Part shown: positions 49,258 to 54,130 of the stretch, piece by piece
Numbering within the stretch: position 1 is the stretch's first letter
Layout: every line of letters begins with the position of its first letter
Assembly: GCA_965214705.1 (NCBI GenBank)
Contig: CBDCCI010000002.1
Location: forward strand, 1,504,001-1,568,000
Direction of reading: 5' to 3'
Length of the DNA: 64,000 nt
Source of the DNA: Alphaproteobacteria bacterium
Lineage (GTDB): Bacteria > Pseudomonadota > Alphaproteobacteria > UBA828
Program-made: the position numbers and the translations under genes
The notes under the pieces: model-generated
Seen by the model: only the letters and a program-made list of their open reading frames with translations
What the model was told of the DNA's origin: nothing
Databases searched by the model: none

Positions 49258-49511
49258 CTCGCTCCTGCGGTCATGCTTGCTTGAACGAAGCCGCTACGCG
49301 GAGTTAGCGGCGTAGAGTTCATTCATTTCCGAGGCGTCGCGGGTGCCGTTTGTTCTGTGCGTTCGCTTCCCGGTTGCGTCAGTGGCGCTCCGCCCGTCGG
49401 GTGGCGGATCCCCAGCAGCCTCCCGATCACCAGTGGTTAGTATCGACCCCTGCGACGGACCGTCGCCGGATCGGTCCGGCGGCGCGCCGTCGCGATCCAG
49501 GGAGATCGATA

Positions 49512-50390
49512 ATGACCGGGACCGCGTGCGACACGAACACCGTCACCCCTCTTCGCCAGCGCATGGAGGAGCAGCTCCGCATCGCCAATCTGGCCGCGAG
49601 CACGTCCAAGGCCTACATCTGCGAGATCAAGAACCTGGCCAGGTACTACGACGCCTCGCCGGACGAGCTCGACGCCGAGCAGGTGCGCCAGTGGTACCTG
49701 GGGCGGATCGACAAGGGGCTCAGTCCGGGCACGACCAACGTCTCCTTCGCCGCGCTGAACTTCCTCTACATCGACACACTCGGCTGGCCTGACCATGTCG
49801 CCGGCCTGCGCTCCCGCAAGAAGCCCGGCAAGCTGCCGCGCTACATGTCGGAGCAGGAGGTCGAGCACCTCATCCTTGCGACACCCGACCTCCGCCACCG
49901 TGCTGCCATTGTCACCGGCTATGGCGGCGGGCTCCGCATCTCCGAGACCTTGGCCATCAAGGTCGGCGACATCCTGTCGGAGAAGAAGCTGCTGCACATC
50001 CCCTCCGGCAAAGGCGGCACCGAGAGAATGGCACCGTTGCCGGACATCGTCATCCACTACTTGCGCGTCTACTACAGGAACATCTGGCCGCGTCCGACGA
50101 GCTGGCTCTTCTACGGCGTCTCGCTCGACAGGCCCATCGCAACGGAGACCTTGCAGGCCGCCTTCAGGAGGGCGCGCGACATTGCCGAGCTCGACCGCAG
50201 CTACACCTTCCATTGCCTGCGCCATTCGGCGGCGACCCATCTCCTCGAGCGCGGCGGCGATATCGAGGTGATCCGGGACATGCTCGGCCATCGAAGCGCG
50301 AACACGACCCGTCACTACGCCCGCGTCACCGGCAAGATGTTCGAGGGCCTCGACCACCCGATCTCAGGCTTCGCAGCGTTGCGCAACTGA
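49512..50390 (+). CDS. Tyrosine recombinase (integron-integrase-like N-terminal SAM domain)
   Basis: GLRISE, KGG.ER, HCLRHS, LGH, TRHY all intact; RBS GGGAG. Confidence 0.93.
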   Translation: MTGTACDTNTVTPLRQRMEEQLRIANLAASTSKAYICEIKNLARYYDASPDELDAEQVRQWYLGRIDKGLSPGTTNVSFAALNFLYIDTLGWPDHVAGLRSRKKPGKLPRYMSEQEVEHLILATPDLRHRAAIVTGYGGGLRISETLAIKVGDILSEKKLLHIPSGKGGTERMAPLPDIVIHYLRVYYRNIWPRPTSWLFYGVSLDRPIATETLQAAFRRARDIAELDRSYTFHCLRHSAATHLLERGGDIEVIRDMLGHRSANTTRHYARVTGKMFEGLDHPISGFAALRN

Positions 50391-50396
50391 CGGCGC

Positions 50397-51638
50397 GTGG
50401 AGGCCGAACGCGCGGGCGTGGCGGAGATCTTCCGCCGCGCCGGCGCCGCTTTCCGTGAGCGCCACAAAGGGCGCATCGACGCCGCCCGGCTCAAGGTCAT
50501 GGGCGCCATCGAGGCGTGCCGCACCGCCGTGCTCGGCGGCCACATGTACGCCTGCGAGGGCTGCGGGCGCGAGCATCCGCTCTTCAACTCCTGCCGCAAC
50601 CGCCACTGCCCCACCTGCCAGGGTCTCGCCGCCAACCTCTGGAGCGAGGAGCGCGCCGGGGACATCCTGCCGGTGCCCTACTTCCATGTGGTCTTCACCC
50701 TGCCCAAGGAGGTTGCCGCCATTGCCTTCTGCAACCGCAGGGTGGTGTTCGACATCCTCTTCCGGGCCGTCGCCGAGACCCTGCGCACCATCGCCGCCGA
50801 TCCCCGCCACGGCGGCATGCGCATCGGCGGCACCGCGGTCCTCCATACCTGGGATCAGAAGCTCCGCTTCCACCCGCACCTGCACGTGGTCGTGCCCAAC
50901 GCGGGCTTCGACGTAGACAGTGGCGAGTGGAAGACGGGGAGCACCACCTTCCTCGCCCCCGTCAAGGTCCTCGGCAGCCTGTTCCGCCGCCTCTTCCTCG
51001 AGGAGCTCGCCCGCGCCCACGGCCGGGGGGACCTGGAGTTCCACGGCACCCTCGCCCACCTCGCCAATCCCGGCGAGTTCCACGCCACGCTTGCCGCCGC
51101 CCGGGCCAGGGACTGGGTGGTCTACGCCAAGCGGCCCTTCCGCGGGCCTGAGCAGGTCTTCCGGTACCTCTCGCACTACACGCACAGGATCGCCATCTCC
51201 GACAGCCGCATCGTCTCCTTCGACGGCGAGACGGTCTCCTTCCGCCACCGAAAGCCCAAGGCGCCGGGGCAGAGAAAGCCGCGCTACGGCATCGCCACCG
51301 TGAGCGCCGACGAGTTCATCCGCCGCTTCCTGAGGCACGTCCTGCCGGACGGCATGCACCGCATTCGCTACTTCGGCATCCTCGCCAACGGCTGCCGCGC
51401 CAGCACGCTGGAGAGAGCACGCCAGGCTCTCGGCGCCCTCGGCTGCGCCGCCCCCGAGGGAAGCGTGGACGGCGCTCGGGCCGAGCCCGACGAAGAGCCC
51501 GAGATCGGCACCGCGCCCGTGGCCTGCCCCCACTGCGGCGGCGTCATGCGCCTCGTCCGCGAAATCCGCCGCCGCCATGAGCCCCGCTCGACGCGCGGCC
51601 CGCCGGCGCTGCCGCCGACCCACAGGGGGAAACCGTGA
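50397..51638 (+). CDS. IS91-family rolling-circle Y2 HUH transposase with zinc-binding domains
   Basis: C..CEGC..SCRNRHCPTC, HVVFTLP, HTW..HPHLH, YLSHY (YxxxY), RYFG, C-terminal CPHC. Confidence 0.93.
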   Translation: MEAERAGVAEIFRRAGAAFRERHKGRIDAARLKVMGAIEACRTAVLGGHMYACEGCGREHPLFNSCRNRHCPTCQGLAANLWSEERAGDILPVPYFHVVFTLPKEVAAIAFCNRRVVFDILFRAVAETLRTIAADPRHGGMRIGGTAVLHTWDQKLRFHPHLHVVVPNAGFDVDSGEWKTGSTTFLAPVKVLGSLFRRLFLEELARAHGRGDLEFHGTLAHLANPGEFHATLAAARARDWVVYAKRPFRGPEQVFRYLSHYTHRIAISDSRIVSFDGETVSFRHRKPKAPGQRKPRYGIATVSADEFIRRFLRHVLPDGMHRIRYFGILANGCRASTLERARQALGALGCAAPEGSVDGARAEPDEEPEIGTAPVACPHCGGVMRLVREIRRRHEPRSTRGPPALPPTHRGKP

Positions 51639-51900
51639 GACGCCCGCTCGCTTCGGCCCCGCGCAACGGCGCCAAAGCGCCGACGCACGACCGAACCTGT
51701 CTCCGCTTGAGCCGGGCTGACAGCCCTCGGCTCACACCCCGCTCAGTCCTCGCAGCGTGCGCCCGCATGCCTGCCGAAAGACCGGCGCGAGCGTCGATTT
51801 TATGCGCAACTCTGCTGCCGGTGGATGCCGCCTGACGCTGACATCAGCGCACTTTCCACATAGCTCAACTTCGCCTCTCGTGGCCCGCGGCTTCGTTCAA

Positions 51901-51942
51901 AAGGGTTGGGCAGGCTCTCGAGAGAGAGCCTGCCCAACCCTT
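51901..51942. other. Perfect 19-bp hairpin with GAGA loop at the element 3' end
   Basis: AAGGGTTGGGCAGGCTCTC-GAGA-GAGAGCCTGCCCAACCCTT. Confidence 0.9.
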
Positions 51943-51945
51943 AAC

Positions 51946-54037
51946 CCGAACTTCCGTTAGCATCTGATTGCCGATCTGGCCGGATTTTGCCTGTTTCCGC
52001 CCTTTCTGCGCAGTTTAGCGCCCGGTTTGGCGCGAAATTCCCGAAATGATCGCCGAAACCGCCGCGATTCGGCGCTCCAGCGCTGGATCACGCCGTCCCG
52101 GCGCATCCACCAAAACCTGAATACTAGTCAGTAGATAGTTTTCTCGTTACGATAATTGCTCCGCATTCCCAAGCCTTTCCGATATGATTGCCGCGATTCG
52201 CTAGGCAGATCGATATGCACATCGAAACCACCCGGTCCGGAAACTCCCGCTGCCACCTCCTCAGACAGTCCTACTGGCAGGACGGAAAACCCAAGAAGCG
52301 CACCCTGTGCAACCTCTCCGCCCTCCCGGAACACGCCATCGAAGCCCTCAAACGCGCCCTCAAGCGCGGACCCGCCCTCAATCCCGACAGCGCCGACGTC
52401 GAACTGCGCGCCAGCCGGGCGCACGGCGCCGTCAGCGCCGTTCTCGGCACCCTTCGCGACATCGGCCTCGACCGCGTCATCTTCCACCGGCCCGATCGCC
52501 GCAGGGCCCTCGTCATCGCCATGATCGTCGCCCGCCTGATCCGGCCCGGCGCCAAGCTGCGCGTCGAGCGCGAACTGGGAGCGGCCGGCACAACCACCCT
52601 CGCCGCCCTGCTCGGCGTCGAAGGCGTCAGCGTCGACGAACTCTACGCCGCCATGGACTGGCTGGGCGCGCGACAGGGCGCGATCGAGCGCAAGCTCGCC
52701 CGGCGCCATCTCGGAGAGGACGATCTCGTCCTCTACGACGTGTCCTCGAGCTACATGGAGGGCAACGCCTGCCCCATGGCGAAGCGCGGCTATTCGAGGG
52801 ATCGCCGGGGCGACCGCCCGCAGATCGTCTACGGCCTCCTCTGCACCCGCGATGGCTGTCCGGTCTCGATCGAGGCCTTCGCCGGCAACACCGGCGACCC
52901 GATGACTCTGGCCAGCCAGGTGCGCAAGGTCCGCGACAGCTTCGGCATCCGGCGGGTGGTGTTGGTGGGGGACCGCGGCATGATCGCGCAGACCCGCATC
53001 GACCGCGACCTCGCGCCCAACGGCATCGACTGGATCACGGCGCTGCGCGCATCCTCGATCCGCAAGCTCGTCGACCGGGGGCATGTCACGCCCGGCCTGT
53101 TCGACACCTGGGGCCTCGCGCGGGTGACCACGCCGGACTATCCCGGCGAGAGGCTGATCGTCTGCTACAACCCGGTTCTGGCGGCCGAGCGCAAGCGCAA
53201 CCGCGACGGGCTGCTCAATGCGACCGAGACGGACGCGCGCGATTTCGCCGCGCGCCACGCCGCCGGCGACATCGACCGCGACGAGTTGAACCGTCGGCTG
53301 GGAACCTTGCGCCGCCGCAAGATGGCCAAGCACTTCCGCTTCGAATTCGACGAGGGCAGCGGCACCTTCAGTTGCGAACGCGACCGGGCGTCGATCGACG
53401 CCGAGGCCGCCCTCGACGGTCTCTACGTCATACGCACCAACGTGGACGAGGACGAGATCGAGGACGTCGAGGCGGTCCGCGTCTACAAGAGCCTGTCACG
53501 CGTCGAGCGCGCCTTCCGCTCGCTCAAGACGGTGTCGTTGCGGATCCGCCCGATCTTCCACTGGCGCGACGACCGAGTACGGGCGCATCTTCTGATCTGC
53601 ATGCTGGCTTGGTATGTCGAGTGGCACATGCGCCGCAGGCTGGCGCCGCTGCTGTTCGCCGAGGAGGACGGAGCGCCGCTGTCCGCGAACCCGGTGGCGC
53701 CGCCGGAACGCTCGGAAAAGGCCCGGCGCAAGGACAAGCGCCGAAAGACGGATGATGGACTTGCGGTGTGCGACTTCCGCGATCTCCTCGGCCATCTCGG
53801 CACGCTTGCTGCCACTGAGATCGCCACCGGAACCGACTTCGCCGTGCCCGCCCTGACCAAGCCGACCGAACTGCAGGAAAGGGCGTTCGCATTGCTCGGG
53901 CTGCGGCCCCATCCTGCGCCCGCGCTCACCGAAAAGGGGATGACCACCGCCAAACCTGTCCAGTAATCGTCGCTTCGAAACTCGCCGAAACCCCTGCCGC
54001 ACAACGGTTCTTTGACTATCCCACACTGGAAGTTCGG
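51946..54037 (+). mobile_element. IS1634-family insertion sequence, complete
   Basis: 10-bp IRs CCGAACTTCC/GGAAGTTCGG; 6-bp TSD CTTAAC at 51940-45 and 54038-43. Confidence 0.92.
52215..53966 (+). CDS. IS1634 family DDE transposase
   Basis: LLRQSY..GK.K.RTL.NL, YDVSSSY, GYSRD, GDRGM, DGLYVIRT, VERAFR, RVRAH. Confidence 0.93.
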   Translation: MHIETTRSGNSRCHLLRQSYWQDGKPKKRTLCNLSALPEHAIEALKRALKRGPALNPDSADVELRASRAHGAVSAVLGTLRDIGLDRVIFHRPDRRRALVIAMIVARLIRPGAKLRVERELGAAGTTTLAALLGVEGVSVDELYAAMDWLGARQGAIERKLARRHLGEDDLVLYDVSSSYMEGNACPMAKRGYSRDRRGDRPQIVYGLLCTRDGCPVSIEAFAGNTGDPMTLASQVRKVRDSFGIRRVVLVGDRGMIAQTRIDRDLAPNGIDWITALRASSIRKLVDRGHVTPGLFDTWGLARVTTPDYPGERLIVCYNPVLAAERKRNRDGLLNATETDARDFAARHAAGDIDRDELNRRLGTLRRRKMAKHFRFEFDEGSGTFSCERDRASIDAEAALDGLYVIRTNVDEDEIEDVEAVRVYKSLSRVERAFRSLKTVSLRIRPIFHWRDDRVRAHLLICMLAWYVEWHMRRRLAPLLFAEEDGAPLSANPVAPPERSEKARRKDKRRKTDDGLAVCDFRDLLGHLGTLAATEIATGTDFAVPALTKPTELQERAFALLGLRPHPAPALTEKGMTTAKPVQ

Positions 54038-54130
54038 CTTAACCTTTGCCGTGTCTGTCGTCTGGTGCGGCGTGAGCCCTTCTCGTCGCGGCAGTGTACG
54101 ATACCGGCGGCCAATCGCAGGAGGAGACGA

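Follow-up and report, generated by a model that had tools for sequence, protein, structure and literature searches.

We analysed a window of 64,000 nucleotides from the genome of an alphaproteobacterium (GenBank assembly GCA_965214705.1, contig CBDCCI010000002.1, positions 1,504,001 to 1,568,000), and all coordinates given without a contig name refer to this window, on whose forward strand every feature described lies. Positions 49281-51945, together with the single base at 54044, make up a 2,666-bp insertion sequence (IS) of the IS91 family, whose extent was set by comparison with 94 left and 92 right ends in the host genome. It consists of a tyrosine recombinase gene, a Y2 HUH transposase gene that follows it, and two structured ends, the right one of which has been split by a foreign IS of the IS1634 family. 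The locus is one copy of an element that was amplified recently and massively. The clade to which it belongs is, judging from its gene content, a part of the IS91 family in which a gene for a recombinase of the integron-integrase/Xer type precedes the Y2 HUH transposase gene, with predicted translational coupling between the two.

Gene content of the element

The tyrosine recombinase gene (49512..50390) encodes 292 amino acids from an ATG, within a frame that is open from 49350, and the product matches the Pfam families Phage_integrase (6.7e-33) and Phage_int_SAM_4 (7e-12). Its scores against the NCBIfam models XerA (143.6 bits), XerC (134.4) and the integron integrase TIGR02249 (130.2, where the cutoff is 265) all stay under the respective cutoffs, and we describe it as Xer/integron-integrase-like. 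The match to TIGR02249 comes in two stretches, with residues 187-209 facing profile positions ~176-252, which suggests that the protein is without the ~54 positions where IntI bears its extra domain. The Y2 HUH transposase gene (50397..51638) begins with a GTG 6 nt past the recombinase stop and encodes 413 amino acids carrying Y2_Tnp (2.7e-54, 184.4 bits) and Zn_Tnp_IS91 (4.3e-30, 104 bits) and no further Pfam domains; it scores 382.5 bits against the NCBIfam equivalog for the IS91 family transposase (NF033538, cutoff 125).

Both enzymes are intact, as a first-pass annotation of the same DNA had proposed. In alignments of 37 sequences each, the recombinase residues R142, K167, H234, R237, H260 and Y269 are invariant, as are H159-P-H161-x-H163, the tyrosines Y257/Y261 of the YxxxY motif and the zinc cysteines of the Y2 protein. 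A search of bacterial and archaeal genomes yielded at least 541 confirmed Y2 relatives out of at least 564 candidates, and the relatives found were all in bacterial genomes. Among the best 80 (46-78% identity) a recombinase gene immediately precedes the Y2 gene in 75, while three of the five exceptions have less than 200 nt of sequence upstream and the other two have a recombinase fragment ~2.7 kb upstream. The recombinase is, as far as its sequence indicates, a conserved part of these elements with its catalytic residues preserved. A predicted complex of the two proteins, built from the same 37-row alignments, scored 0.00 against a mark of 0.32, and we counted this neither for nor against binding.

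Exact ends, end structures and copy number

The host genome (7.92 Mb in three contigs, 67% G+C) returned 132 BLAST pieces of the element, among them 94 left and 92 right ends that are at least 95% identical (66 in uninterrupted copies). Because so many ends could be compared within a single genome, the boundaries are exact: TTGAACGAAGCCGC (TTGAAC...) starts 90 of the 94 left ends and CCCTTAACC terminates all 92 right ends. A length of exactly 2,666 bp is shared by 61 copies, and 57 of these carry 0-6 changes relative to the consensus; the burst must therefore be recent. The boundaries are corroborated in three further ways. Contigs from 4 public sequencing runs break at 49280-49282 and 51946, in agreement with the ends; a copy nested in another copy lies in known sequence (..ggcctac^atctgc.., where ^ marks the insertion point), which means that the initial TT is borne by the element; and in a same-genus relative the two flanking genes are spaced by the same 35 nt with the element absent. 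The empty-site comparison that the first-pass annotation had put forward as a check of the ends thus came out in their favour. As a side observation, position 49441 (element position 161) is T in the window copy and in some other genomic copies, and C in all 4 public runs examined.

At the left end, which would correspond to terIS (the terminator) of IS91, the terminal 14 bp TTGAACGAAGCCGC (49281..49294) form an inverted repeat (IR) with GCGGCTTCGTTCAA (51887..51900), the exact complement of the former. That the repeat is perfect can be read directly in the sequence, and by our arithmetic ~3e-4 perfect 14-mers would be expected by chance between two 300-nt end regions. The right copy is subterminal, and directly downstream of it a repeat search located a hairpin (51901..51942) with a perfect 19-bp stem (51901-51919/51924-51942, 100% complementary) and a GAGA loop, both as previously claimed. 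The inner part of the left IR overlaps a hairpin as well. The larger one described in the first pass (GCCGCTA 49290-96/TAGCGGC 49305-11) is present and yet particular to the closest relatives; what relatives conserve instead is a small hairpin nested within it, CCGC-TAC-GCGG at 49291..49301 (CCGC 49291-94/GCGG 49298-301), as seen in an alignment fold of 9 left ends.

The right hairpin is followed by a 4-nt tail, AACC, of which the window copy retains AAC (51943..51945) next to the hairpin and the final C at 54044, as comparison with the 92 right ends established. Between them sits the IS1634-family IS (51946..54037), with a transposase ORF at 52188-53966 (NCBIfam NF033559, 314.7 bits against a cutoff of 100), 10-bp IRs CCGAACTTCC/GGAAGTTCGG and a 6-bp duplication, CTTAAC, at 51940-45 and 54038-43. 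Once it is removed the end reads hairpin-AACC and then TTTGCC, in line with the earlier reconstruction.

Three side observations concern the hairpin. Its loop (51920-51923) is GAGA in 54 and the inverted TCTC in 7 of the 61 exact-length copies, and since TCTC occurs on three different sequence backgrounds the loop must have flipped more than once. The sole head-to-tail dimer (host contig C2:646566-646643) has an extra GGTT between right repeat and hairpin, which produces a perfect 78-bp junction palindrome. A solitary 50-bp palindrome of the form GGTT-hairpin-AACC (host contig C1:3505988-3506037) lies between ..CAA and TTG.., ahead of the left end of another recombinase-bearing family, introduced below as the third family.

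Conservation of the end anatomy in relatives

The flanks of homologous recombinase-Y2 pairs, proposed earlier as the place to look, proved informative. An automated IR search returned chance 9-11-mers at many loci, and we adopted a motif-anchored search, which misses two elements (L019/L020) whose ends were found by copy comparison. By this search a left/right pair of 14-mers with at most 3 mismatches is present in 44 of the 61 elements examined, and in all 44 the right repeat directly precedes a hairpin with a short tail (4-9 nt across elements). Position 10 of the IR is Watson-Crick paired in all 31 distinct pairs through three pair types (G:C 10, C:G 17, A:T 4), and changes at this base are matched in the 3' arm of the small left hairpin too. 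That hairpin has 4 pairs in the 9 aligned left ends, 2 of them with compensatory changes, and in more distant families it recurs as xCCGC-loop-GCGGx' (GCCGC/GCGGC, CCCGC/GCGGG, ACCGC/GCGGT, ATCGC/GCGAT). For the right hairpin, compensatory changes occur in 7 of 13 pairs across 9 related right ends, with 86.3% of cells paired; none of 500 shuffles reached the observed pairing, and slid controls paired at 45% or less.

The host genome itself holds relatives at ~80% DNA identity (L195, L196) that share the end anatomy with covariation, as well as a third, ~2.6-kb recombinase-Y2 family (C1:1526488-1529100 and 9 other places) with a 40% identical Y2 protein and a 34% identical recombinase. The latter has left end TTGAACTGAGCCGC, two compensatory IR changes (TTGAACTGAGCCGC/GCGGCTCAGCTCAA), a 13-bp hairpin of its own and, as tail, CAATTCA. 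The anatomy is kept as well in three other genomes, each of which has 18-25 copies or fewer. Thus the terminal IR with its 5' hairpin, the subterminal IR before the 3' hairpin, and the short tail are kept in relatives at 40-78% Y2 identity, with compensatory changes in IR and both hairpins. A relative from the Bacteroidota (L169), with the left-end-like GTTGAACTAAACC and a degenerate right repeat, was left out of the counts.

These data bear on the trivial view that the IR is a chance repeat and the hairpin a transcription terminator of the Y2 gene. The hairpin does lie ~260 nt past the Y2 stop and is G+C-rich, as a terminator might be. However, no T-run follows it, the element boundary falls exactly 4 nt past it in 92 of 92 right ends, and IR and hairpin covary across families down to 40% protein identity with the IR kept directly upstream of the hairpin. 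The conservation data already refute this view, and we give it next to no credence.

A second alternative makes the recombinase the sole mobility enzyme, excising and integrating the element conservatively through the two IRs as arm sites, with Y2 as a passenger or replication factor. The IRs, at 14-17 bp and strongly conserved, do resemble recombinase or transposase binding sites, and the recombinase keeps constant company with Y2 among the best 80 relatives. In a duplex circle, though, the two IRs would be held at least 46 bp apart, not 6-8 bp; the ends are crisp, without variable coupling sequences (90/94 left, 92/92 right); copy number and near-identity of the copies point to replicative spread; and the catalytic motifs of Y2 are invariant. 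We regard this alternative as very improbable.

Two relatives show peculiarities of their own. The closest foreign one (L013, 78% Y2 identity, among the best 80) sits inside a tandem array of a 12-nt unit TTCGCCCGTGAA, which occurs at least four times on the right side of the element and once on the left (L013 4540-4600 and 1805-1816). In another genome (G003), 10 copies of a family (L153-L165) that are otherwise 99.9% identical differ in the 5-8 bases before GAACGAACCCGC (GCATG, GCAAT, GCAAC, TCAAT, CCATG, GCATC); GGG and a motif resembling GCRAKGTC recur in their left flanks, and the right flank lacks TT. It seems that either the left terminus of this family is rewritten at each move or its target is a degenerate repeat.

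Target site and insertion logic

The 82 distinct right flanks in the host genome yield a logo with T at +1 in 68, T at +2 in 79, G at +3 in 44, C at +6 in 60 and G at +7 in 48. This means that the element inserts, in one orientation, directly 5' of TT(G)nnCG, a target that mimics its own left end TTGAACG; the right flank of the window copy, TTTGCCG (54045..54051), fits the motif. On the left side, a pyrimidine occupies -1 in 49 of 58 reconstructed sites, and AA is found at -8/-7 in 19 of the 58, against 1.6 expected. The target is not duplicated: the 93 distinct left and 82 distinct right flanks have no common repeat, and the nested insertion and the empty site agree. The first-pass annotation had drawn attention to TTGC on both sides of the element (49277-80 and 54046-49), which is present and nonetheless a coincidence, neither a target duplication nor a signature, since only the right-side TT(G) recurs over these flanks. 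It had also noted the IS91 target tetramers CTTG/GTTC at both IRs; the target found here is TT(G)nnCG to the right of the element, and not these tetramers as such.

Copies also lie directly 5' of another copy's left end (the head-to-tail dimer) and of the left end of the third family, in keeping with the mimicry of the left end by the target. The same pattern extends to other genomes: a 71%-identical family starts with TTGAACG at all 18 left ends, and all 20 of its right flanks have T at +2; a Bradyrhizobium family, whose tandem junction shows that it ends ...CTCAAGA^TT and starts TTGAACG, lands inside GGAA..TTCC palindromes. We considered a 2-bp duplication of TT and rejected it: 13 of 14 copies without T at right-flank +1 still start TTGAAC, and the nested site reads ..tac^atc...

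Comparison with classical IS91 and Helitron2

For comparison we mapped 13 copies of classical IS91 on an E. coli plasmid. Of their 10 distinct right flanks, 5 start with CAAG, 4 with GAAC and 1 is another copy. Duplications are absent, tandem triplets occur, and the left end TCGAG resembles the element's own target. Our element shares with IS91 its transposase family (the NCBIfam equivalog and both Pfam domains), although Y2 identity to IS91, IS1294 and IS801 is only 22-28%. It also shares insertion without duplication, oriented by a short motif that abuts the end downstream of tnpA, a left end that resembles the target, subterminal palindromes at both ends, head-to-tail tandems, and an upstream, translationally coupled accessory gene. 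Since the one-sided target logic is found in IS91, it is a trait of the family that needs no recombinase.

There are also differences. Read on the gene-sense strand, our element targets ^TT(G)nnCG and IS91 targets ^CAAG or ^GAAC. The upstream gene of IS91 is Orf121, and here a 292-aa tyrosine recombinase takes that place; the idea that Orf121 is a recombinase relic was rejected (hhalign probability 0.13, and no Pfam family at E <= 0.01 for Orf121). Finally, classical IS91 has a left hairpin, a short right hairpin and a short terminal IR (TCGAGTAGG/CCTATCGA) with no subterminal repeat upstream of the hairpin, whereas the right IR of our element is subterminal and precedes a long hairpin. It is the recombinase-bearing clade that has the subterminal repeat, and the view that its end anatomy departs from that of classical IS91 holds.

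Functional work on IS91 provides the frame for interpretation. As described in PMC13181058 (2026), the target tetranucleotide abuts oriIS (the origin), downstream of tnpA, and terIS has one subterminal palindrome beside the cleavage site; TnpA alone inserts a bottom-strand single-stranded DNA circle and does not insert a double-stranded one; and Orf121, upstream of tnpA and translationally coupled to it, improves the recognition of terIS.

The closest match to the end anatomy comes from eukaryotic Helitron2 elements. Bao and Jurka (2013, PMC3627910) describe a 5' asymmetric terminal inverted repeat (ATIR), located 0-2 bp from the end and also engaged in a 5' hairpin, with a 5' T, and a 3' ATIR 20-30 bp from the 3' end, directly upstream of a 3' hairpin, with compensatory mutations. 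They suggest that where replication ends is determined by the two repeats pairing with each other. The bacterial element shows every structural point of that ATIR description, as the first pass had proposed for Helentron-like elements, and shares with Helitron2/Helentron elements a Y2 Rep and insertion next to T's without duplication. It differs in having no helicase fused to Rep (RepHel), a bacterial host, an additional tyrosine recombinase and a 4-9-nt tail. As Helitron2 is described in PMC3627910, the same end anatomy accompanies a Y2 Rep without a recombinase. By this analogy the resemblance appears to be one of working anatomy: the element is not a Helitron and would work like one.

The recombinase and the parallel with integrons

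A recombinase of this type invites comparison with integrons. The IS91-associated recombinases are placed in an 'Integron-like' subgroup, as closest homologues of IntI, in a preprint (10.1101/542381), and attC sites are defined in PMC3053210 as RYYYAAC ... variable palindrome ... GTTRRRY. Likenesses exist at several levels: the Xer/IntI-like recombinase, an element that starts with TTRRRY (TTGAAC) and a right IR that ends with RYYYAA (GTTCAA) with a variable palindrome between them, a crossover directly 5' of TT, no duplication (as in cassette insertion), and a predicted folded junction with unpaired bases between two arms. GTTCAA and TTGAAC fit the attC core at 6 of 7 positions on each side.

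These likenesses support an integron-like division of labour, in which the HUH enzyme would make a single-stranded DNA circle and the recombinase would integrate its folded right-left junction, as an attC-like site, into a degenerate duplex (C)AA-N6-^TTG, with replication resolving the product. The predicted folded junction is indeed a two-arm site, with the 14-bp IR stem, 4 unpaired nucleotides (AACC), 5 bp, and an inverted inner arm TTGGGC that fits TTGnnC. This geometry is kept in relatives (inner arms TTGAGC, TTGACC, TTAGGC, TTAATC and TTTAGC, 9 nt to the junction). The target is a degenerate palindrome, AA-N6-TT, and insertion falls where arm meets spacer, the position at which bottom-strand cleavage would be expected from a recombinase occupying the strong arm; the Bradyrhizobium family inserts within its palindromes at GGAA..^TTCC. 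Recombinase scores that are best with Xer and integron-integrase models, and the grouping in the preprint, point the same way.

Against it stands what elements without a recombinase achieve. IS91 and IS1294 show the same one-sided target logic, absence of duplication and tandems, TnpA of IS91 is reported to insert single-stranded circles alone (PMC13181058), and Helitron2, as described, has the same ends (PMC3627910). Moreover, the match to RYYYAAC/GTTRRRY was noticed post hoc and leaves the seventh core base mismatched, the GAACGAACCCGC subgroup has no TT, and the recombinase is below every NCBIfam cutoff and, from the matched profile ranges, seems to lack the IntI-specific insertion. There is, besides, no attI platform or cassette array as in integrons, and the element brings its own HUH enzyme. 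Because IS91 and Helitron2 manage without a recombinase, we rate integration by the recombinase as unlikely, if worth keeping in view.

A broader version of the same idea strikes us as more doubtful still. The recombinase-bearing IS91 clade would then be a self-mobilising analogue, possibly even the evolutionary source, of the integron cassette system, in which the HUH enzyme peels off a single-stranded circle and the IntI-like recombinase inserts its attC-like junction by one-strand exchange; the Helitron2 anatomy would in that case be an ancient device of Y2 transposons for pairing single-stranded ends that the recombinase exploited later.

Elements of the IS200/IS605 group provide a further point of reference: they carry a Y1 HUH transposase and move by 'peel and paste' through a single-stranded circle intermediate. 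Subterminal hairpins at both ends, the lack of a duplication and a target motif equal to the cleavage site of the element are shared with them. Our element differs in having a Y2 enzyme, rather than a Y1 enzyme, from another fold family, in its recombinase, and in a target that abuts the right end. In IS200/IS605 the target abuts the left end, and the two ends do not pair with each other.

Proposed transposition mechanism

Weighing these comparisons, we consider the best explanation to be that the Y2 enzyme transposes the element as a single strand by an IS91-style rolling-circle process, that IR pairing juxtaposes the ends and that the recombinase has an accessory role; to this explanation as a whole, including the recent burst, we assign a probability of roughly 0.7. 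The Y2 enzyme would move the element in the way that experiments have demonstrated for IS91. Its location next to the conserved flank would make the hairpin end the origin (oriIS), with the left end as terminator (terIS). On the displaced strand, the left end could pair through its terminal 14 nt with the subterminal IR beside the right hairpin, which would put the termination nick at the hairpin base, next to the 4-nt tail that carries the enzyme-bound origin end. Such a geometry would favour precise termination and closure of a single-stranded circle, following the same logic as proposed for Helitron2, and the HUH enzyme would then re-insert the circle at a site resembling its own junction. 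The recombinase, in the gene position held in IS91 by the termination-fidelity factor Orf121, would be an accessory factor, with the palindromic right-left junction or the left end as its most likely site of action.

Several points weigh against this explanation or limit it. The moving strand and the initiating end would follow from the analogy with IS91 only, and the target motif is unlike that of IS91, so that target chemistry is not simply transferable. Covariation of the IR would be no less expected from a single protein that recognises the two ends as duplexes, and a mismatch at IR position 6 is retained in 15 of the 31 distinct pairs, contrary to simple pairing. The target is two-fold symmetric (AA at -8/-7, TT at +1/+2, with A at -8 again in a second genome in 13 of 18 sites by hand count), and a dimeric, duplex-binding recombinase therefore fits this AA-N6-TT symmetry at least as well as a monomeric HUH enzyme. 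The G003 family, with its fuzzy left end and no TT target, finds no explanation in the model.

Other possible signs of the process gave little. The host genome contains no truncated one-ended copies that would show polarity, each partial BLAST piece being partnered across another IS. Strand counts relative to replication direction (14 vs 31, 7 vs 12 and 16 vs 12) are uninformative, given a cumulative GC skew that is weak and fails to close along contig C1. Contigs from the 4 public runs held no circle or junction joints, a result that carries no weight either way; the tandem in the genome would in any case mimic such a joint.

Novelty and implications

The first-pass annotation had called the element a distinct class, which is overstated: the gene pair and the family are already known, the transposase is a full IS91-family equivalog, and the association of an integron-like recombinase with IS91 is in print (10.1101/542381). 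In the full-text literature searched, which did not extend to ISfinder or TnPedia, we found no account of how the ends of this clade are built, of its TT(G)nnCG target, of what its recombinase does or of the parallels with Helitron2 and attC. The IS91 family and the related ISCR elements are vehicles of resistance and virulence genes, with a mechanism that is only now being dissected, and a large clade of the family carries the recombinase. ISfinder lists IS91 members with an upstream integrase, for example ISWz1 and ISAzo26. Where ISWz1 is mentioned in PMC11322121 it is called merely an IS91-family member.

The host genome offers an evidently active element with about ninety near-identical copies, nucleotide-exact ends and a target logo, along with natural variants (the tandem junction, the loop flip-flop and nested copies) and several related families for covariation. 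It allows a direct test in bacteria of whether a terminal repeat, by pairing with a subterminal one, determines where rolling-circle transposition terminates, as proposed for Helitron2, for which we know of no test. It likewise makes testable what an integron-integrase-like recombinase does in a single-strand transposon and whether attC recombination of integrons has roots in such elements. Should the ordinary reading be true, what is gained is a new and well-characterised subgroup of IS91 whose target specificity is also new.

Other insertion sequences and occurrence in public sequencing runs

The IS1634-family IS that splits the window copy is present in 15 full copies in the host genome, with 6-bp YTTAAR duplications. 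Eight of these have landed in the CTTAAC at the right-end tail of our element, where both orientations occur and the outer flanks differ; the tail is probably one of few YTTAAR hexamers in a 67% G+C genome. The element is also hit by a 1,649-bp IS110-family element (DEDD_Tnp_IS110 and Transposase_20), absent from the window copy and present in 16 full copies in the host genome. Fourteen of the 16 occupy an identical site at element position 1306 (between CTCTTCA and AACTCCTGCC), in the part of the Y2 gene that codes for the zinc domain, as in the example at host contig C1:1661345-1662993 (L194 96-1744). It is either a site-specific parasite of the transposon or part of a composite that spreads in trans. 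The corresponding junction appears as loose ends at window position 50586 in two public runs.

Any part of the element was found in 20 public runs from 12 studies, and near-complete copies (at least half of the sampled words) in 18 runs; the runs with at least half of the words were filed under eleven organism codes. The host bacterium or the element is widespread in sequencing projects of other organisms.

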